Positions 24,207 to 56,226 of a stretch of DNA of 64,000 nt are shown here, one piece after another; the stretch's first letter is position 1; every line of letters starts with the position of its first letter. The translations under genes were made by a program, and so were the position numbers. The stretch is from an uncultured Acidobacteriota bacterium (lineage in GTDB: Bacteria > Acidobacteriota > Thermoanaerobaculia > Multivoradales > JAGPDF01): positions 16,153 to 80,152 of the forward strand of contig CAWAGZ010000008.1 of NCBI GenBank assembly GCA_963781755.1, written 5' to 3'. Under the pieces are notes generated by a model. It searched no databases and had not been told where the DNA came from. It saw nothing but the letters and a program-made list of their open reading frames with translations.

Positions 24207-24743
24207 ATGAACCTCGACACCAGAACCCTCGGACCCCGGCTGCAGGAGCTGGAGGTCGGGCTCTGCCAGCGCGCCGTCCGCATCCAGGAGCGCCGCGCGG
24301 TCCTGGCTTTCTTCCGCACGGTCTCGCGCCTCGGCGACGGCGGGCTCTGGATCGCGTTGGCGGGTTTGCTGGCGGTCGTCGGCGGCGAGCGGACGCTGGC
24401 GACGGTGGCGCGGATGGCGGCGGTCGGCCTGGCTTCGACGGTCGCGAGCAAGCTGCTCAAGAGGTGGGCGTGCCGGCCGCGGCCGTGCACCGTCGCGGCG
24501 GGCATTGCGGCCGGCGCGGCGCCGCTCGATCCCTGGAGCTTCCCCTCGGGCCACACCCTCCACGCGGTGGCCTTCACCGCGGTCGTGGGCGCCGAGCTGC
24601 CGACGCTCGCCCTGCTGCTGTTGCCGTTCACCCTCGCCGTCGCCGCGTCGCGCGTCGTCCTCGGCCTGCACTATCCGAGCGACGTCGCGGCGGGCGCCGC
24701 GATCGGACTGGCTCTCGCCGGCGCGGTCCTGGCTTTCTCGTGA
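24207..24743 (+). CDS. PAP2 superfamily phosphatase (phosphatidic-acid / lipid-phosphate phosphatase type)
   Basis: All three PAP2 motifs: KLLKRWACRPRP (KxxxxxxRP), PSGHT, SRVVLGLHYPSDV (SRxxxxxHxxxD). Membrane protein, 178 aa. Confidence 0.85.
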   Translation: MNLDTRTLGPRLQELEVGLCQRAVRIQERRAVLAFFRTVSRLGDGGLWIALAGLLAVVGGERTLATVARMAAVGLASTVASKLLKRWACRPRPCTVAAGIAAGAAPLDPWSFPSGHTLHAVAFTAVVGAELPTLALLLLPFTLAVAASRVVLGLHYPSDVAAGAAIGLALAGAVLAFS

Positions 24744-31306: not shown

Positions 31307-31945
31307 TCAGGTTGCGCGGCTCGATCTCCGCCGGCCCCGTCCGGGGCCGGCGGCCGAAAAGCCCATCTCGGCCAGCAGCTGCCCGACCAGCGTGAGCGGC
31401 AGGCCGACGACGTTGTCGTAGTCCCCGTCGACGTGGTCGACGAAGGCGGCGGCGCCGCCCTGGATGGCGTAGGCGCCGGCCTTGTCGAGCGGCTCCCGAC
31501 CGGCTGCGTAGGCCGCGATCTCCTTTGCGCCGAGGCGGCGGAATGTGACCTCGGTGCGGCAGGCGCGGGCGAGCTCGCGGGCGACGGTGCCCGGGGCGCC
31601 GGACCGGACGACGGCGACGCCGGTCCAGACGTCGTGGCGGCGGCCCGAGAGCCGGTGCAGCATCCGCTCGGCCTCGGCCGCGTCGGCCGGCTTGCCGAGC
31701 AGCTCGCCGTCGACGGCGACCACCGTGTCGGCGCCGATCACGATCTCGCCGGTCCGGGCCGCGGCGATCGCCTTGGCGCGGGCCAGACGCAGGGCGAGAC
31801 GCTCGGGCGGTTCACCGGCTCGCGGAGTCTCGTCGGCGTCCACCGGGCGGACCTCGAACTCGAGGCCGAGTCGGAGGAGCAGGTCGCGCCGGCGGGGCGA
31901 CGCCGAGGCCAGGACGAGCCGCGGCGGACCGGGACTTCCGCTCAC
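31307..31945 (-). CDS. maf: Maf-like nucleoside triphosphate pyrophosphatase (septum formation protein Maf)
   Basis: GTG start (VSGSPGPPRLVLASASPRRRDLL…); Maf signature LASASPRR; start overlaps the stop of the upstream VWA gene (GTGA). Confidence 0.85.
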   Translation of the reverse strand: MSGSPGPPRLVLASASPRRRDLLLRLGLEFEVRPVDADETPRAGEPPERLALRLARAKAIAAARTGEIVIGADTVVAVDGELLGKPADAAEAERMLHRLSGRRHDVWTGVAVVRSGAPGTVARELARACRTEVTFRRLGAKEIAAYAAGREPLDKAGAYAIQGGAAAFVDHVDGDYDNVVGLPLTLVGQLLAEMGFSAAGPGRGRRRSSRAT

Positions 31946-33745
31946 GGGTAGTAGCCGGTCGCGGTGCGCACCGTGACGCCGGGCCGGTCGACCGCGACCT
32001 CGACCTTGCGGTACCCGTCGCCCCCGGGCGAGTCCGACTGGTAGGCGAGCAGATACTGCGAGCGCAGGTCCTTCTCGATCTCCTCGTAGATCGGCCCCAG
32101 GCGACTGGCGCGGTCGACGCGGAAGGAGCGCCCCCCGGTCTCGCGTGCCAGGCGGTCGAGGGCGACGCCCGCGGTGGGCGGATGGGTCGGGACGTCGAGG
32201 CCGATGGCGTAGATCGCCACGCCGCTGCGCCGGGCGTAGTCGAGGACGTCGTCGAACCGGGTGCGGCTGTTCGAATCCTGGCCGTCGGAGATCAGGATCA
32301 GGGCGCGCTTGCCGCTCAGTCCCGCGAAGTAGTGGAGGGTGAAGGCGAGGCTGTCGTAGAGGGTGGTCTCGCCCTCCGCACGGAGGTCGGCGAGCCCTCC
32401 CGCGAGCCGGTCCAACCGGCCCGTGAACTTGACCGCGAGGCGCGGCGAATCCGCGAACGTGATCACCGCGGCCCGGTCGAGGGGGGTCAGGACCTGCTCG
32501 AAGAAGCGCAGCGCCGCGCGCTCGGCCTCCTGGAGCTCGGCCGCCATCGAGCCGGAGGTGTCGAGCATGACCGCGGCGTGGATCGGCACGTCGCCGATCT
32601 TCTCCAGGCGCAGCAGCTTCTCGGGACGTCCGTCCTCGCGGATCTCGACCTCCTCGGGCCGGAGATCGTCGACGGGTCGGCCGTGACGGGCGAGGACGGT
32701 GGCGAACAGCTCGACGAGGTCGACGTCCACCTGATCGTTCGTCGCCCCCGCGGCGCCGAGCGTGCGCACGGCCTCCGCCGCGCCGCCGCCGGCGAGGAAG
32801 GCGACGGCGCGGATCCACGTGATCGGAGCTTCGGCGGGCGTCTCGAGTTGCTGGACGAAGGGCGGTTGGAAGAGCGTGGCGCGCAGCTCGCCGCCGACGC
32901 GGAACTCGACCCGGTCGAGCGTCCTCGCCCTCGGGCACCGCGACGGCGGCGCGCGCCTCGACGGCGCCGGGGGCCGGCACGGCGGGTTCCGCCAGCGACA
33001 GCCGGACCGCGAAGCGTTGCGGTCCGGCGTTGAGCGTCGCCTCGTCGCGCGCCAGCTCGGCGCCGCCGGAGTCGAGCGCGACCGCCGCGACCCGATGCAG
33101 CCTGGGGCTCGACCCGAGGTCCAGCTCGACGGTCCACGGCGGACGGCTCCGGGTCATCACGCGGTGGCCGTCGAGCTCGAAGCCGACGCGGTCCACCCGG
33201 TCCCCCCGCACGTCGGCGTCGAATCGGACCTTGCCGGTCAGCAGCTCGCCGACCGGCGCGAGGAGGCGGACGGCTGCTCCCTCCCCGGTGGCCGTCGTCG
33301 CCGTGGCGGGCGCACCCGGGACGTCGAGCTCGCGCGACTCGCGGTGGCACCTCCCGGTCGCCTCCTCCTCGAGCGCCAGCTGCATCCGGTAGTGGCCGGC
33401 CGGCAGCCGGCGCAGGAATTCCAGTCGCACCGGATCGGCGGACGGCGGCGGCGAGAAGCGGTAGCGGAAGCCCTCGATCCGGCGGTCGCCGCGGACGATC
33501 TCGCCGTCGAGACGGTAGGCGCCCGGCCCGGCCTCCGCCTCCCGGCCGGCCGTGCCGGTCAGCGTCAGCGTGCCTTCGACCCGGGTGCTGGCGGAGCCGC
33601 GGTCGGTGAAGGCGACCGAGAGGACGGCGTCGAGCTTCGGGGCGTTGGCGGGGCAGGGTCCGGCGGTGGGCTCCGGCGCGGTCGTCGCCGCCGGGAGCCG
33701 ACCCGGTACCGCCAGCAGGAGCAGCAGGGTGACGAGGGCGCGCAT
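31942..33745 (-). pseudogene. VWA-domain secreted protein (Acidobacterial VWFA-related family, paralog of 33803..36340), with an apparent +1 frameshift near 32915-32930
   Basis: N-terminal part in frame of ORF 31307..33745 (signal peptide MRALVTLLLLLAVPG…), C-terminal VWA part in frame of ORF 31942..32769. Alignment to the intact paralog (…VEVPEDSSLDRVEF…) shows the shift at PEGEDA|LDRVEF. Confidence 0.7.
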
Positions 33746-33802
33746 GCCCCGATCCTAAGCAAATCCGGCGTCCCCGTGGGGGGGCCGCGGTCGGAGCCGC
33801 CG

Positions 33803-36340
33803 TCAGGGGTAGTAGCCGCGCATGGTCTTGGCCTCCAGGCCGGGGCGGTCGACCTTGACCTCGACGGTGCGGAACTTCGTGTCCTGGTTGGTGTTGGTGG
33901 ACTGATAGGCGAGCAGGAAGCGGGAGCGCAGCTCCTTCTGGATCGCGTCGTAGACCGGCGGCAGGTCGCTCGCCTTCTTGACGAAGAAGCTGCGCCCGCC
34001 GGTCTCGTCGGCGAGGCTCTTGAGCACCTTGCGGGTCTCGAACTCGGTGCGCCCGATGTCCAGGCCGATGGTGTAGATCGCCACCCCGGCGTGGCGCGCG
34101 AAGTCGAGCGTCTGGTCGAAGGTGAAGCGGCTGTTCTCGTCCTTGCCGTCGGAGAGCACGAGCAACGCGCGCTGGCCCTTGAGGCCGTTGAAGTAGAACA
34201 GGCCGAAGACGACCGAGTCGTAGAGCGACGTGCCGCGTTCCGCCTTGAGGCCCGCCAGGCCGCCGGCCAGATCCTCGATCCGGTTGGTCATCTTGACCGC
34301 CAGGGTCGGCCGGTCGTTGAACGGGATCAGGGCGGCGCGGTCGCGCGGCGTGATGGCCTGCTGGAAGAAGCCCAGGGCGGCCTGGCGCGCGACGTCGAGG
34401 CTGGGCTCCATCGAGGCCGAGGTGTCGAGCAGCACGGCGACGTGGATGGGCAGGTTCTGGAGCTGCTCGAAGCGGACGAGCTTCTGCGGCACGCCGTCCT
34501 CGGCGACGGCGAAGGCGTCGCGGGGCAGGTCGGAGACCGGGTGTTTCGCTCGGTCCACCACGGTGGTGTAGAGCTCGACGAACTGGACGTCGACCTCCTC
34601 GAGGTTCTCGGGCGCGTTGACGAAGACCAGGTCCTCGGTCGAGTTGCCGTCGGTCAGGTAGGCGACCGCGCGGACGTAGGCGATCTGACTCTCGGGGGGC
34701 AGGACGATCGGTTGGGTGAACGGCTCCTGGTAGAGCGTCGCGACCAGCGTCTCGTTGAGGTAGAACTCGACCCGGTCGAGCGAGGAGTCCTCGGGGACCT
34801 CGACCTGGGCTTCGGCGCGCAGGCTCGAGCGGTAGCGCTTCCCGCGCCGGGGCTCGATCAGGCGGATCGAGAAGCGGTGCGCGCTGGCGTTCAGCAGGGC
34901 CTGGTCGGAGGCGACCTCGTGGCCGGCGGCGTCGTAGGCGGTGGCGGTCAGGGTCCGCGTGCGGGGCACCTGTCCGAGGTCGAGCTCGACCGAGAACGGC
35001 GGGCGGTTCTTGCGCAGGATCGGCTTACCGTCGATCGCGAACTCGACCTCGGAGATGTCCGGTCCGGTGGTCAGCGTGTCGAAGCGCTCGAGGCCCGACT
35101 GCATCTGACCGCTGGGCTCGACGATCTTGATCGTGTTGTCCAGCGTCGAGAGCGCGGCGTTGGCCTCGGTCAGGAGACGGGCGGTCTGGTCGTCGGCCGG
35201 CGGCGGCAGCGGCTCCGTGGACTCGGGCACCGCGAGCGGACGCTCGGCGCGGAAGTACTTGTCGCCGTTCAGGTCCTCGACCTTGACGATCAGGGTGTAG
35301 TCCTCGCCGGGGCGCAGGAAGCGCTCGAAGACGAGCGGTATCGAGTCGGATTCGATCTGCGAGGCGGGGAAGTCGAACTTGTAGCGGAAGGTGTCGAACA
35401 GCTTGCCGCGCAGCAGGACCTCGCCGTTGAGCAGGAAGTTGTAGGAGTGGCTGCCCGCGATGTCGGCGGTGCCCGCGGCGTCGGCGGGGATCGCCACCGT
35501 GCCCTGGACGACGGTCCGGCTCTGGCGACGGCCGGGGAAGGCGAGGGTGAGGTCGCCGGGCAGCTCGCCGGCTCCCTCCGGGACGTCGGTCGAGTAGGAG
35601 TTGAAGGTCGAGACCCACTCTCGCGAGGGCCCCTGGATCGGCTTCAGCGCCACCGCGATGAGATTGGCGTAGTCGAGCTGTCCGCGATTCAGGACGGCGC
35701 TGACCGCAGCGGCCATCCGGTCGGCGCGCACGCAGCTATTGCTGATCTGGTCGATCAGGTCGTACGCCGAGGTGTTGGGAGCGGCTGCCTGGAAGAGCTT
35801 GCCGACGCCGTCGGCGGGCATCCAGAGCCGCCAGTCCCCGCGGCCGAAGGGCTGGTAGAAGACCAGCACCAGCACCTCCCGGACCCGCTCGCTGGGCGGG
35901 TAGATCCAGGCTTCCGTGGGCCACAGCAGCACGCCGCAGGTGTCCACCTGGCGTAGCGCCGGCGCACCGTTGAGCAGGTACATCCGAGCGCGCACGTCGT
36001 CGAGGGTGCCGAACTCCTGCCGGGCCTCCTCGACGCGCGCGGACCAGCTCTCGCGCAGCTCGTTGCGGGCGGTGTCCGGGTAGGGGTCGCGGACCCGCCA
36101 GAAGCTCTCGATGAAGGCGTCGCGCTGGTAGTCCTTCTCGAGCTTGAGGAACGCCTCGCGCTCCTCCTTGGTGATCAGCGGCGCCACCTCCTGGAGCCAC
36201 TCCCGATAGGTCTGCGGGAGGTTGGCTACCGCCTGGCGCTCCTCGGCCTTCTTGCCCGCACCGGCGGGCACGACGACGACGAGGGCGGCCACCGCGGCCA
36301 GAGCCGCGACGGCGCGCCGGATCCGCGCGCGCGATCGCAT
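33803..36340 (-). CDS. VWA-domain secreted protein with large N-terminal Acidobacterial VWFA-related domain (TIGR03436-like)
   Basis: Signal peptide MRSRARIRRAVAALAAVAALVVVVPAGA; C-terminal VWA with MIDAS DTSASM…; ends …KTMRGYYP like its paralog. Confidence 0.8.
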   Translation of the reverse strand: MRSRARIRRAVAALAAVAALVVVVPAGAGKKAEERQAVANLPQTYREWLQEVAPLITKEEREAFLKLEKDYQRDAFIESFWRVRDPYPDTARNELRESWSARVEEARQEFGTLDDVRARMYLLNGAPALRQVDTCGVLLWPTEAWIYPPSERVREVLVLVFYQPFGRGDWRLWMPADGVGKLFQAAAPNTSAYDLIDQISNSCVRADRMAAAVSAVLNRGQLDYANLIAVALKPIQGPSREWVSTFNSYSTDVPEGAGELPGDLTLAFPGRRQSRTVVQGTVAIPADAAGTADIAGSHSYNFLLNGEVLLRGKLFDTFRYKFDFPASQIESDSIPLVFERFLRPGEDYTLIVKVEDLNGDKYFRAERPLAVPESTEPLPPPADDQTARLLTEANAALSTLDNTIKIVEPSGQMQSGLERFDTLTTGPDISEVEFAIDGKPILRKNRPPFSVELDLGQVPRTRTLTATAYDAAGHEVASDQALLNASAHRFSIRLIEPRRGKRYRSSLRAEAQVEVPEDSSLDRVEFYLNETLVATLYQEPFTQPIVLPPESQIAYVRAVAYLTDGNSTEDLVFVNAPENLEEVDVQFVELYTTVVDRAKHPVSDLPRDAFAVAEDGVPQKLVRFEQLQNLPIHVAVLLDTSASMEPSLDVARQAALGFFQQAITPRDRAALIPFNDRPTLAVKMTNRIEDLAGGLAGLKAERGTSLYDSVVFGLFYFNGLKGQRALLVLSDGKDENSRFTFDQTLDFARHAGVAIYTIGLDIGRTEFETRKVLKSLADETGGRSFFVKKASDLPPVYDAIQKELRSRFLLAYQSTNTNQDTKFRTVEVKVDRPGLEAKTMRGYYP

Positions 36341-36398
36341 CGCCCGGGATTGTTGCAGATCCGGTGCCCAGCGCCGCCGGCGCTACAATCGCCCGACC

Positions 36399-37598
36399 GT
36401 GACGCGCGTCTACCTCGATCACAACGCCACCACGCCGCTCGACCCGCGGGTGCGCGAGTCGATGCTGCCCTGGCTCGGCGACCGCTGGGGCAATCCGTCC
36501 TCCGCGCACCGCGCCGGGCAGGAGGCGAGCGCCGCCGTCGAGGAGGCCCGCGAGCAGGTGGCGCGGTTGATCGGCGCGCGGGCTCCCGAGATCGTCTTCA
36601 CCGCCTCGGGAACCGAGGCCAACAACGCGGTGGTCCGCTCGGCGCTGCTCGGCGATCCGGAAATCTGGACCCGGAGCCGCGAGCGTGCCGCCGGCGCCCC
36701 CCACCTGGTGATCTCGGCCTTCGAGCATCCCTCGGTGGAGGTCGCGGCGGCCGATTGGGCCCGGGCTTCGGGCGCCGAGGTGACCCGGGTGCGGCCGGAC
36801 CGGCACGGCGTGGTCGATCCCGAAGCGGTCGTCGCGGCGCTGCGTCCGGAGACCCGGCTGGTGGCGCTGATGCTCGCCCAGAACGAGGTCGGGACGCTGC
36901 AGCCGGTGGCCGAGACCGCCCGGCTCTGCCGCGAGCGCGGCGTGCGGGTGCTGTGCGACGCGGTCCAGGCGCTGGGCAAGGTGCCGGTCTCGGTGGCGGA
37001 TCTCGGCGCCGATTACCTGACCCTGGGGGCGCACAAGTTCCACGGCCCGCTCGGCGCCGGAGGGTTGTGGATCCGCGCCGACGCGCCGCTCGAGCCGCTC
37101 CTGGTCGGCGGCGGACAGGAGCGGCGCCGGCGGGCGGGCACGGTCAACGTCGCCGCGGTGGTCGGGTTCGGGCGCGCCGCGGAGCTCGCCCGGACCGAGC
37201 TCGCGCGGCGCGCCGAGCGGCTGACGGAGCTGCGCGACCGCTTCGAGGCCGGGCTGTCGTCGGCCGTTCCCGACGCGATCGTCCACGGCGCCGGGGCGCC
37301 GCGCCTGCCCCACACCTCGCACGTCGCCCTGCCGGGCACGGTCAACTCCGAGCTGATGATCCGCCTGGACCTCGCGGGGTTCGCGGTCTCGACCGGCGCC
37401 GCCTGCTCGTCGGGGGTGGTCGAGCCGGGTCCGGCGATGGTCGCGATGGGCGTGCCGCACGAGCAGGCCGTGGCCTCGATTCGCGTCTCCTTCGGTATCG
37501 GCAACACGCCGGCCGAGGTCGACGCCTTCCTCGCGGCGCTGGCGGCCGAGGTCGCGACGTTGCGCCGGGACGTCGCGGCGTCACGGGCGGGGCGATGA
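36399..37598 (+). CDS. iscS: cysteine desulfurase (IscS/NifS class V aminotransferase)
   Basis: GTG start (VTRVYLDHNATTPLDPRV…); PLP-lysine region LTLGAHKFHGPLGAGGLW; active-site loop STGAACSSG; directly coupled to mnmA. Confidence 0.85.
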   Translation: MTRVYLDHNATTPLDPRVRESMLPWLGDRWGNPSSAHRAGQEASAAVEEAREQVARLIGARAPEIVFTASGTEANNAVVRSALLGDPEIWTRSRERAAGAPHLVISAFEHPSVEVAAADWARASGAEVTRVRPDRHGVVDPEAVVAALRPETRLVALMLAQNEVGTLQPVAETARLCRERGVRVLCDAVQALGKVPVSVADLGADYLTLGAHKFHGPLGAGGLWIRADAPLEPLLVGGGQERRRRAGTVNVAAVVGFGRAAELARTELARRAERLTELRDRFEAGLSSAVPDAIVHGAGAPRLPHTSHVALPGTVNSELMIRLDLAGFAVSTGAACSSGVVEPGPAMVAMGVPHEQAVASIRVSFGIGNTPAEVDAFLAALAAEVATLRRDVAASRAGR

Positions 37599-38705
37599 GC
37601 GCCGATCCCGCGACGACGCGCGGCCTGACCGCGGTGGCGATGAGCGGCGGCCTCGACTCGAGCGTCGCCGCCTGGTTGCTGGCGCGCGAAGGGGAGCCGG
37701 TGATCGGTCTCTCGATGCTGCTCTGGGACCGCTCGGGCGAGGCCCGCCACGGCCGCTGCTGCGGCGCGCTCGACCTCGGCGACGCGCGCCGGGTGGCGAC
37801 CCAGGCCGGCATCCCGCACTACACGCTGAGGCTGGACGAGGAGTTCCGCCGTCACGTCGTCGACCCCTTCGTCGCGGACTACCTCGCGGGGCGCACACCG
37901 TCGCCGTGCGTGCGCTGCAACACCTTCGTCAAGTTCGACCTGTTGATCGAGCGCGCGCGGCGGCTGGGCGCGACGCGGCTGGCGACCGGCCACTACGCGC
38001 GCATCGTGGAAGGCGGGGACGGTCCGGAGCTGCACGCGGCCGTGGACGCCGCCAAGGACCAGAGCTACTTCCTGTTCGAGCTCGACCGCGCGCAGCTCGC
38101 CTTCAGCCGCTTCCCTCTGGGTGAACGGACGAAGCCCGAGGTGCGCGAGCTGGCGCGCGAGGCGGGGCTCGCGGTGGCCGGCAAGGGCGAGTCGATGGAG
38201 GTCTGCTTCGTCGACGGCACGGTGCGCGAGTTCGTCGAGAAGGAGGCGGGTGAGCGCCCGGCGGCGCACGGGCCGCTCCCGGCCGCCGGGGCGCGGGTGA
38301 TCGACCGCGAGGGCCACGAGCTGGGGCACGGCGACCCCTATTTCCGCTACACGGTGGGCCAGCGCCGCGGTCTCCACATCGCCGCGGGCGAGCGCCGCTA
38401 CGTGCTCGAGGTGCTGCCCGCCGAAAACGCGGTGGTGGTCGGCGCGGAGGCGGACCTCTACGCCCCGGGTCTGGCCGGCGAGCGCCTGCACTGGATCGGC
38501 CCGCCGCCGCCCGGCCCGGTGGAGGCCACCGTCAAGATCCGCTCCCGCCACCCGGGCGTCGCCGCCCGGATCCGCCCGAAGAGCGACGGCGAGGTCGAAG
38601 TCGACTTCGCCGAGCCCCAGCGCGGCGTCGCCCCCGGCCAAGCCGCCGTCTTCTACCAGGCCACGAAGGTCCTCGGCGGCTGCTGGATCACGGGGCAGGC
38701 TGTGA
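37595..38705 (+). CDS. mnmA: tRNA-specific 2-thiouridylase MnmA. 3' end uncertain: no in-frame stop before the downstream gene.
   Basis: ATG overlapping the iscS stop (ATGA). PP-loop AVAMSGGLDSSVAA; catalytic Cys regions; C-terminal …GQAAVFYQATKVLGGCWITGQ matches the MnmA tail. A TGA in the +1 frame overlaps a GTG at ~38702 (GTGA). Confidence 0.85.
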
Positions 38706-39457
38706 GTCGGCGTCGGCCCGAGCTGCCGCTCCTCCTTCTCGCCTGGGTCCTCGCCTGCGCGCTGCCGCCACGCCCCGCGAGGGCCAGCGCGGTCAAGTCT
38801 TTCCAGAAGGACCTCCAGCGCATCGAGGACCGACTGCACCGGGGGGAGTGGCGCCAAGCGAGCGATTCCTGCGATCGCGTGATCCGGGACCTGGTCAACG
38901 AGGGCGCGCACGGCAAGGGGGCGCGACCGCTCTATGGTCTCGCCTTCGCCTTCCGCGCCATCGCCGAGAGTGATCTCGGGGACGAAGCCGCCGCCGTCTG
39001 GGATTGGTCCGTCGCCGGCCAGATGTCGCCGCAGACGACGACTTTCGACCTCGCCCGTTTCGGAGCGGCGGGGAGCCACCTCGCGGCGATCCTCGCCGAG
39101 CGCGCCGCCGATCCCGATCCCGTCTACGTATTCGACGAATCCGACGACACCCTGAAGGGTCCGAAGAAGATCTCGGCCGAGCAGCCGGAATACCCGAGAT
39201 GGGCGAGGCAGGCGGGCATCCAGGCAGTGATCCGCACCAAGGTGGAGATCGACCGGTCGGGGCGACCCGCACGAGTGCTGGAGATGGATCCGTCCGAGCT
39301 CGACGCCCATGCGGCCATCGCGGTCCTGACCTTGAAGGCGATTCGCACCTGGCGCTTCGAGCCCGCGACGCGCGACGGCCAGCCGGTCCGGATCTCCTAC
39401 GAGCTCACGGTCTCCTTCAGCCTGTGGGATGCGTGGGGGAGGCCGGTCTCCCACTGA
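38702..39457 (+). CDS. secreted protein with Sec signal peptide and C-terminal TonB-C-like domain
   Basis: Same frame as mnmA with no intervening stop. Textbook signal peptide (M/V)SRRRPELPLLLLAWVLACALPPRPARA|SAV starting at GTG ~38702. C-terminal EYPRWARQAGIQAVIRTKVEIDRSGRPARVLEMDPSELDAHAAIAVLTLKAIRTWRFEPATRDGQPVRISYELTVSF resembles TonB_C. Confidence 0.6.
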   Translation: MSRRRPELPLLLLAWVLACALPPRPARASAVKSFQKDLQRIEDRLHRGEWRQASDSCDRVIRDLVNEGAHGKGARPLYGLAFAFRAIAESDLGDEAAAVWDWSVAGQMSPQTTTFDLARFGAAGSHLAAILAERAADPDPVYVFDESDDTLKGPKKISAEQPEYPRWARQAGIQAVIRTKVEIDRSGRPARVLEMDPSELDAHAAIAVLTLKAIRTWRFEPATRDGQPVRISYELTVSFSLWDAWGRPVSH

Positions 39458-39740
39458 AGCTGGGCGCAGCACGCGGACGCCGCCGCGCGGCGGCGCGACA
39501 GAGACTTGCAGTGATGGTGGGGGGTGACCGGTCGCCGGCGGTGGCTGGCGGCAGCTCGCCGGGCGCACTCTCCGTTCCCTTCATTGGAGGTTTCGTTCTC
39601 GAGGGCGCGCACGGATTCGTTGCGGCGCCTCGAATCGAAGCGCGCTGGGAGGAGCTGTTTCCGGAGGACCCGCGCACCGGCGGGTCCGGCGCGCCGGGCT
39701 TCGTGACGGCGGTCTCGGGCCGGGATAGGGTGAGGCTCCG

Positions 39741-52848: not shown

Positions 52849-52939
52849 GATCCGGCCCGAAGCCGGCCCGGACCCGTCGCAACCCGGTCAGGTTCCGATC
52901 GAGAGCCCTTACCCCCATCCCCGGAAGGAGAGACCAGGC

Positions 52940-53323
52940 ATGTACCCGAGCGATTGCCGCTACACGCGGGAGCACGAGTGGGTGCGGATCGAGGACGATC
53001 TCTGCGTCCTCGGCATCACCGATTTCGCCCAGAACGAGCTGGGCGAGGTGGTCTACGTCGAGCTGCCCGAGATCGGACACATGTTCGACGCCGGCGACGA
53101 GCTGGGGACGATCGAATCGGTGAAGGCGGTGGCCGAGGTCTACACGCCCGTGGCCGGCGAGATCGTCGAGATCAACGAATCCTTGCGCGACGACCCGCAG
53201 TCGATCAACGAGGACCCGCACGGCGACGGCTGGCTGGTCAAGATCAAGTACTCGGCCTCCTCCGATTTCGAGGAGCTGATGAAGGCGGATCAGTACGAGA
53301 AATACACCCAAGAAGGGACGTGA
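52940..53323 (+). CDS. gcvH: glycine cleavage system H protein (lipoyl carrier)
   Basis: Lipoyl-lysine context ESVKAVAEVYTPV; 127 aa. Confidence 0.95.
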   Translation: MYPSDCRYTREHEWVRIEDDLCVLGITDFAQNELGEVVYVELPEIGHMFDAGDELGTIESVKAVAEVYTPVAGEIVEINESLRDDPQSINEDPHGDGWLVKIKYSASSDFEELMKADQYEKYTQEGT

Positions 53324-53327
53324 ACCC

Positions 53328-56225
<2,898 letters not shown>

Positions 56226-56226
<1 letters not shown>

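Follow-up and report, generated by a model that had tools for sequence, protein, structure and literature searches.

One extra base joins mnmA to a downstream TonB_C-domain gene in an acidobacterial contig

Does an acidobacterial genome encode a tRNA thiolase fused to an exported protein, or have two neighbouring genes been run together in its sequence? The question is raised by a single open frame at 37595-39457 on the plus strand of a 64 kb window (the whole stretch of DNA that was analysed), which extends over 620 codons and meets a stop only at TGA 39455-39457. The first-pass annotation described this frame as mnmA open into a signal-peptide/TonB-C-like protein, which is what we find; it considered a true fusion implausible and proposed either a 1-nt indel in the last mnmA codons hiding a GTGA junction, or a genuine stop-less overlap in which the downstream gene initiates internally. 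We favour two separate genes and an extra C that is most probably an insertion error of the assembly, a reading to which we give a probability of about 0.8 from comparisons with relatives and from other frame breaks in the window.

The fused frame and the base that creates it

The features of the locus, with mnmA given as reconstructed, are as follows.

36375-37598, plus strand: class I (NifS/IscS-like) cysteine desulfurase (PF00266); start codon uncertain, frame open back to TTG 36222
37595-38705, plus strand: mnmA, tRNA 2-thiouridine(34) synthase, reconstructed; 369 aa, full-length MnmA HMM matches
38696, plus strand: extra C in the context ACGGGG[C]AGGCTGTGA, which puts the end of mnmA in the downstream gene's frame, hiding its stop
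38702-38705, plus strand: GTGA start/stop overlap, in which GTG is the start codon of the TonB_C gene and TGA the stop codon of mnmA once the frame is repaired
38702-39457, plus strand: predicted exported TonB_C-domain protein, 251 aa (PF03544/TIGR01352, homologues, AlphaFold model)
38702-38785, plus strand: predicted signal peptide, about residues 1-28 of the TonB_C protein
Residues 26-135 of the TonB_C protein, plus strand: helical domain (AlphaFold model)
About 39164-39421, plus strand: TonB C-terminal-domain fold, residues 155-240 of the TonB_C protein

A complete MnmA occupies residues 13-365 of the 620-aa product, with the signal-peptide/TonB_C protein lying C-terminal to it. The product matches the curated equivalog models NF001138 (365 bits, cutoff 284; model positions 3-345 of 345) and TIGR00420 (306 bits, cutoff 237) over their full length and above cutoff, which identifies it as an MnmA, and the three Pfam domains of the family (PF03054, PF20259 and PF20258; HUP, PRC barrel and C-terminal beta-barrel) are all present. 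The translation reads AMSGGLDSS at residues ~20-28 and so contains SGGxDS near the N-terminus, which we take to define the PP-loop ATP-binding motif of MnmA. At its 5′ end, the start ATG 37595 and the TGA of the cysteine desulfurase gene before it overlap as ATGA (37595-37598). At the other end, the frame runs on from the MnmA peptide ...GQAAVFYQATKVLGGCWITGQ into AVSRRRPELPLLLLAWVLACALPPRPARASAV, and this stretch includes residues 377-391, which are more hydrophobic than any other 15-residue segment of the ORF. GTG 38702-38704 belongs to the mnmA frame, and TGA 38703-38705 overlaps it in the +1 frame, as the first-pass annotation had read them.

The indel that it suspected can be identified as the C at 38696, which lies seven bases (two codons) upstream of the TGA where MnmA stops in close relatives. 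With this base removed, MnmA is 369 aa long and ends ...GGCWITGRL at the stop TGA 38703-38705; only in this form does it have the usual size of an MnmA (~355-380 aa) and a C-terminus a few residues past the last beta-barrel strand. The repaired protein is of equal length to a 97%-identical homologue, with 358/369 residues identical and the last 25 residues the same. The stop-less frame is due to one identifiable extra base and is not a chance oddity of a 72% GC genome. The local context is four Gs, then the C, then A, in which no homopolymer is lengthened; homopolymer extension is the classic context of long-read errors. A scan of metagenome contigs for either junction allele (TGCTGGATCACGG N3-4 GGCTGTGAG) gave 0 matches and hence no independent copy of the +1 allele or of the strain itself, and neither the 620-aa fused protein nor the 315-aa metallo-beta-lactamase-fold protein next to it had an exact match on record.

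Both genes would be ordinary. The TGA of mnmA would overlap the GTG of the downstream gene by 4 nt, and the extra C would move the last mnmA codons into the downstream frame, so that the stop goes unread and an apparent 620-codon ORF results. Overlaps of this kind are the usual layout in this genome: besides the ATGA at 37595, GTGA junctions were confirmed at 24740 (PAP2/GT4) and 31945 (VWA/Maf), the two sites to which the first-pass annotation had compared this one. The geometry of the restored overlap suggests translational coupling, in which it would serve termination-reinitiation.

The junction in relatives

We compared the locus with five independent relatives (74-97% identical, L008 being the closest). 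In all five, MnmA ends 4-6 codons past GGCWI, with the terminal residues ITARL in L002, ITGRLT in L003, ITGRL in both L005/L006 and L008, and IESGL in L009. Termination is at the homologous TGA in L002, L005/L006 and L008, and at other stop codons in L003 and L009. C38696 is missing from L002, L003, L005/L006 and L008, and it is the only indel private to the window in a five-way alignment of the desulfurase and mnmA genes. Against L002, a short-read JGI contig, the window aligns over 2,349 columns with 146 mismatches and one gap, which is C38696; L002 has the identical 4-nt overlap (at 1548-1551 of that contig), called as two genes. L003 has ATGA at the place equivalent to the GTGA of the window, and start and stop likewise overlap in L012. 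The junction DNA of L008 is that of the window minus C38696. The TonB_C region of this contig aligns to the window only via dozens of small indels, the gene hopping between all three frames, and we therefore used L008 for the junction and not for the body of the TonB_C gene. Both L003 and L008, which are public contigs, are visibly indel-rich.

The orthologue check proposed with the first-pass annotation revealed no conserved long fusion ORF. TonB_C was found in none of the 120 best MnmA homologues (353-480 aa) from a database of 5.8 billion proteins. The 480-aa member of this set was considered as a partial fusion and rejected, since its MnmA ends GGCWIESGL before a stop and the extra length is not C-terminal. 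The four close TonB_C homologues (242-253 aa) each stand alone, their genes being called separately beside mnmA. At all five syntenic loci mnmA and the TonB_C gene are distinct, with an out-of-frame overlap or a 17-nt gap between them, and orthologues from independent genomes contain no conserved fusion of the Rosetta-stone type. The sole fused call, in L003, is due to an extra C of that contig itself, within a run of Cs in mnmA; that a false fusion arose independently in this noisy contig indicates that the junction fuses easily in a 72% GC genome. Further out in Thermoanaerobaculia, mnmA is followed by an unrelated gene: PBP1, an ACT-domain gene or an antitoxin. The reading of the locus as a true bifunctional MnmA-TonB_C protein under selection, for which the uninterrupted frame in the window alone speaks, is already contradicted by this comparison of orthologous sequences, and we regard it as extremely improbable.

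The neighbouring genes

The gene upstream of mnmA matches PF00266 over residues 12-385 (246 bits), and its best NCBIfam matches are NifS/IscS models, all under their equivalog cutoffs. Its orthologues (385-412 aa) lie directly upstream of mnmA, and the pair recurs in L006, L008, L010, L012 and L013 and is conserved across Thermoanaerobaculia. This order, with a class I cysteine desulfurase gene immediately before mnmA, is already known from yrvO-mnmA, the pair behind the abbreviated 2-thiouridine pathway of Bacillus subtilis (PMC5372745). The pair in the window has the same kind of IscS/NifS-like gene in the same position, overlapping mnmA by ATGA, but belongs to an acidobacterial and not a Gram-positive lineage, and the likeness is one of gene arrangement. 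The view that an iscS-mnmA-(TonB-C-like) linkage is unusual thus applies to only one side of mnmA: the desulfurase-mnmA pair is known and conserved, whereas the TonB_C neighbour is clade-specific, and nothing suggests a functional link between it and mnmA.

By both sequence and fold, the downstream protein has a TonB C-terminal domain. It scores 50-52 bits against PF03544 (cutoff 24.6) and 31-33 bits against TIGR01352 (cutoff 27.1), and in the AlphaFold model (pLDDT 83, pTM 0.80) the best Foldseek match is the TonB CTD 6i97_D (TM 0.80 normalised to the target, rmsd 2.5 A). The C-terminal ~85 residues that match these families superpose on the solved CTDs 6i97_D, 1u07 and 2gsk. The remainder differs from TonB in three respects. 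There is no Pro-rich spacer, its place being taken by residues 26-135, which form a helical bundle in the model (pLDDT about 80-97). The hydrophobic segment LPLLLLAWVLACAL lacks a His and is followed by PPRPARA and then S, resembling a signal peptidase site (A-x-A) with a predicted mature N-terminus SAVKSFQ, in contrast to what we take to be the anchor of TonB, an uncleaved N-terminal transmembrane segment with a conserved S-x3-H that couples to ExbB/ExbD. Finally, the immediate neighbours are mnmA and a metallo-beta-lactamase-fold gene, and not exbB/exbD, in the window as in L003, L005, L006 and L008. The best name is TonB_C-domain protein, not a TonB. A lipoprotein reading based on Cys19 was rejected, as VLAC does not make a canonical lipobox and the homologues have no conserved lipobox at that position. 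A scan of genome contigs with the TonB_C protein returned only one remote, 32%-identical deltaproteobacterial match.

Origin of the extra base

Two other genes in the window are broken in the same manner. An extra C at ~32923 (CC at 32923/32924) splits a VWA gene, to which the 495-aa protein of L008 maps in two frames at 96-98% identity, and removal of one C gives an open frame of 518 codons ending TGYYP. The housekeeping gene gcvP is split by C55233 exactly between positions 614 and 615 of TIGR00461, and without this base is open over 980 codons. A GC3-phase scan of the whole window flagged further same-strand switches at 24.7 kb, 42.6-43.7 kb and 58.7 kb, which we rejected as frame breaks because they are normal gene boundaries; of the flagged switches only those at 32.9 kb and 55.2 kb are frame breaks, and outside the three sites the window looks clean at gene scale, a point against the error reading. 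Three single-C insertions that break genes (mnmA, VWA and gcvP) within 64 kb point to residual indel errors in the assembly, and since two of them lie in other genes, the extra C in mnmA is most probably an error as well. The locus resembles known chimeric ORFs induced by frameshifts, in which a base inserted near the 3′ end of a gene removes its stop and merges it with the next, and in which deletion of that base restores proteins of orthologue length; the fused call in L003 is the same artefact. In the present case the error is deduced from the comparisons and from the two other frame breaks.

The alternative that survives best, though we consider it unlikely, is that C38696 arose recently as a true mutation in this strain alone, giving MnmA a C-terminal extension of 251 residues and a product of ~68 kDa in place of the 41-kDa MnmA. 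The sequence as given does read as a fusion, the G4-C-A context is not that of a homopolymer extension, and all MnmA domains are intact, with the HMM match complete by residue 365. Against this, the allele is absent from all five relatives, one of them 97% identical, no fused protein occurs among the best 120 MnmA homologues in the 5.8-billion-protein database, and the indel-rich state of the related public contigs L003 and L008 also counts against a real mutation. Moreover, the one-base insertions in VWA and gcvP would imply frameshifts at a density rarely met in a free-living bacterium but typical of assembly errors. Supposing that the base is real, what was once a signal peptide could serve as an internal anchor in the membrane, with MnmA in the cytoplasm and TonB_C in the periplasm; this succession of cytoplasmic domain, hydrophobic helix and periplasmic domain should be physically possible, and such a membrane-tethered chimera, its signal peptide serving as transmembrane segment, is slightly less probable again than the mutation itself. 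Free TonB_C protein would then arise only by independent initiation at GTG 38702, termination-reinitiation coupling being lost. The stop-less overlap with internal initiation proposed in the first-pass annotation would apply in this situation alone, which the VWA and gcvP breaks make unlikely.

Programmed +1 ribosomal frameshifting near 38696, which within ACG GGG CAG GCT GTG A would let translation end at TGA 38703 and yield a normal MnmA from the sequence as written, is hardly credible, given that the site is not conserved, that relatives terminate in the zero frame without a shift, that the site has neither an in-frame stop nor a known slippery or hungry-codon motif of the prfB type, and that the same ad hoc rescue would have to be invoked for two other genes in the window.

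On the reading of two genes run together by an extra base, the significance of the locus is mainly one of quality control. At least three single-base insertions corrupt gene calls in this window (the false mnmA/TonB_C fusion, the split VWA gene and the split gcvP), and other odd ORF structures in the assembly should be treated with suspicion. Wherever a 620-aa "MnmA-TonB fusion" has been annotated, two genes should be entered in its place. The trap is a general one for high-GC genomes with NTGA overlaps: because off-frame stops are rare, one base inserted close to the 3′ end of the first gene merges it unnoticed with the second. The MnmA-TonB_C fusion is most likely not new biology and no genuine feature of this organism; were the base real, the locus would be a minor but neat snapshot of how one base inserted at a 4-nt overlap can give rise to a fusion protein.

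A stop-free frame through mnmA and a TonB_C gene

Two features on the + strand define the region:
37595-39457, +, stop-free reading frame of 620 codons, from ATG 37595 to TGA 39455-39457
Upstream of mnmA, +, class I cysteine desulfurase (PF00266), its TGA overlapping the mnmA ATG (ATGA 37595-37598)

Residues 13-365 of the frame are an end-to-end match to MnmA (NF001138 positions 3-345 of 345, scoring 365 bits where the cutoff is 284; TIGR00420, 306 bits), with the Pfam HUP, PRC-barrel and C-terminal barrel domains. Past ...GGCWITGQA (junction peptide GGCWITGQAVSRRRP...) the frame runs via GTG 38702 into VSRRRPELPLLLLAWVLACALPPRPARA/SAV, a stretch that contains the ORF's most hydrophobic 15-mer, and on to a TonB_C domain (PF03544, 52 bits; TIGR01352, 33 bits). 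The first-pass annotation had described mnmA as reading without a stop into a signal-peptide/TonB-C-like protein, and a +1-frame TGA overlapping the GTG start of the latter; both are present, the TGA (38703-38705) forming the string GTGA with GTG 38702. Because off-frame stops are rare in the window (72% GC), a 1-nt shift can stay open for hundreds of codons. Very long ORFs (574-1064 aa) also occur at 37013-39568 (-), 32762-35956 (+) and 35736-37460 (-); we rejected these as genes: they overlap real genes on the opposite strand or in another frame, and are a by-product of the GC content.

The junction in relatives and the extra base

The fusion had been judged implausible, and the homologues agree. 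A TonB_C domain is absent from all of the best 120 matches to the 620-aa ORF (353-480 aa; those with names are Thermoanaerobaculia), headed by P0008, a MnmA homologue of 369 aa and 97% identity. A search of the 251-aa downstream protein against 5.8 billion sequences returned only four close homologues (242-253 aa), each standalone, and on their contigs mnmA and the TonB_C gene are separate gene calls in the order found in the window: desulfurase, mnmA, TonB_C gene, metallo-beta-lactamase-fold gene. The comparison of relatives' MnmA C-termini that the annotation had proposed gave a stop soon after GGCWI at all loci extracted.

MnmA C-termini in junctions extracted from loci of relatives
L002: GGCWITARL*
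L003: GGCWITGRLT*
L005/L006: GGCWITGRL*
L008: GGCWITGRL*
L009: GGCWIESGL*

In the JGI short-read contig L002, mnmA (369 aa) shares 4 nt with the TonB_C gene; in L006 it encodes 363 aa and lies 17 nt from the next start. GTGA in L002 and ATGA in L003 support a predicted TonB_C gene start that coincides with the mnmA stop or lies close to it.

The junction reads ATCACGGGGCAGGCTGTGAG in the window, ATCACGGGG-AGGCTGTGAG in L008 and L006, and ATCACGGCA-AGGCTGTGAG in L002; as it is one base shorter in these relatives, the window carries one extra base, C38696, seven bases ahead of the TGA ending MnmA in L002, L005/L006 and L008. Aligned with L002 over the desulfurase 3' end and the entire mnmA and TonB_C genes (2,349 columns, 146 mismatches), the window shows a single gap, C38696, which is also its sole private indel in a five-way alignment of desulfurase and mnmA. 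Deleting this base in silico gives a 369-aa MnmA, identical to P0008 at 358 of 369 positions and in its last 25 residues (VAPGQAAVFYQATKVLGGCWITGRL), whose stop, TGA 38703-38705, overlaps GTG 38702. Biologically, then, there are two genes with a GTGA overlap, and the suspicion of a 1-nt indel hiding such a junction near the end of mnmA is supported by both the relatives' junctions and the repaired protein. Similar overlaps occur at PAP2/GT4 (24740) and VWA/Maf (31945), as previously remarked, and at desulfurase/mnmA (37595).

The TonB_C-domain protein and the mnmA neighbourhood

A confident model of the 251-aa protein (pLDDT 83, pTM 0.80) shows a hydrophobic N-terminal helix, a weakly TPR-like helical domain (residues 26-135) and a third domain superposable on solved C-terminal domains of TonB (6i97_D, TM 0.80 normalised to target, rmsd 2.5 A; 1u07; 2gsk). 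Because it lacks the Pro-rich spacer and His-bearing anchor of TonB, and its locus has no exbBD neighbours, we describe it as a predicted exported protein with a TonB_C domain rather than as a TonB. In some close relatives the first copy is followed in tandem by a second paralogue (P0002/P0003, sharing 45-46% identity with the protein of the window; L003 5696-6762, L007 3-1054, L004 440-1506); the window, L005 and L006 have a single copy ahead of the metallo-beta-lactamase-fold gene.

The iscS-mnmA-(TonB-C-like) linkage had been called unusual, which does not hold for its first part: the desulfurase-mnmA pair is the known yrvO-mnmA arrangement of B. subtilis, in which a dedicated IscS-like desulfurase (yrvO) upstream of mnmA is enough for s2U34 formation (PMC5372745). 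It does hold for the TonB_C neighbour, which is clade-specific. The pair, with a divergent large VWA/Big_7 gene upstream, is kept across Thermoanaerobaculia (L010, L012, L013), and the gene 3' of mnmA there varies and is unrelated (PBP1, ACT-domain gene or antitoxin), so that the TonB_C neighbour is an accident of synteny; nothing suggests a functional link to mnmA. MnmA residues ~101-107 (TPSPCVRCN; window 37895-37915) hold a C-x-x-C motif, which in place of the D-x-x-C of E. coli MnmA presumably resembles 'C-type' MnmA, reported to be iron-sulfur-cluster dependent in Thermus.

Origin of the extra base

We consider the extra C to be probably a residual assembly error (roughly 0.8), since three +1 insertions in 64 kb, one in a housekeeping gene, would fit assembly errors far better than three true frameshifts in a free-living bacterium. 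The other two breaks are:
31945-33430, -, VWA gene, frameshifted at ~32923 by one additional C that is private to the window (GAGCGT[C]CTCGCC)
53283-56226, +, gcvP, single-chain glycine dehydrogenase (TIGR00461), split at C55233

Around ~32923 the 100-nt context is otherwise identical. The 495-aa VWA protein of L008 maps to window 33430-32924 and, in another frame, 32937-31945 (96-98% identity), the break falling inside a conserved ...PEGETLDRVEFRVGGELRATL... stretch; with one C deleted, a 518-codon frame ends in TGYYP*, the last residues of the L008 protein. The gcvP break was found by a GC3-phase scan over the entire window: 53283-55232 matches TIGR00461 positions 1-614 (873 bits) and 55138-56226, in the +1 frame, positions 615-939 (564 bits), C55233 being the sole base between the halves (GNID[c]VSDLRAKAE), and deletion of one C gives a 980-codon frame. 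The first gcvP frame stays open by chance as far as 56600, and gcvH lies directly upstream (52850-53323). At all three sites (32923, 38696, 55233) the extra base is readable as a + strand C, with close relatives for comparison at the first two. GATC occurs at or near two of the three (GGATCACGGGGC and ATCGATCGTC). Three events do not suffice to separate systematic basecalling error from coincidence.

That C38696 is a real mutation private to the strain seems unlikely: it does not lengthen a homopolymer, which is the main caveat on an assembly error, but the window also carries the VWA and gcvP breaks, and indels are plainly abundant in L003 and L008 (ENA), the closest public contigs. Over 2.4 kb, seven 1-nt indels are private to L003, which also has, independently of the window, its own false fusion call (386 aa) joining the C-terminal half of MnmA to TonB_C, caused by an extra C in a C-run within mnmA (~4680; gagCCCCCagcg versus CCCC in the window at 38614); its true MnmA ends ...CWITGRLT*, with an ATGA overlap with the next gene. 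Programmed +1 frameshifting restoring the MnmA end has neither a conserved site nor an in-frame stop at the site, and relatives need no shift. A conserved bifunctional fusion is contradicted by all orthologues examined.

Were the insertion real, a membrane-tethered MnmA-TonB_C chimera would be topologically possible, and termination-reinitiation coupling of the downstream gene would be abolished. With an assembly error as the preferred explanation, the fusion is, on these comparisons, not a real feature of the organism's biology, and its main use is as a warning of sporadic single-base insertions in this assembly.
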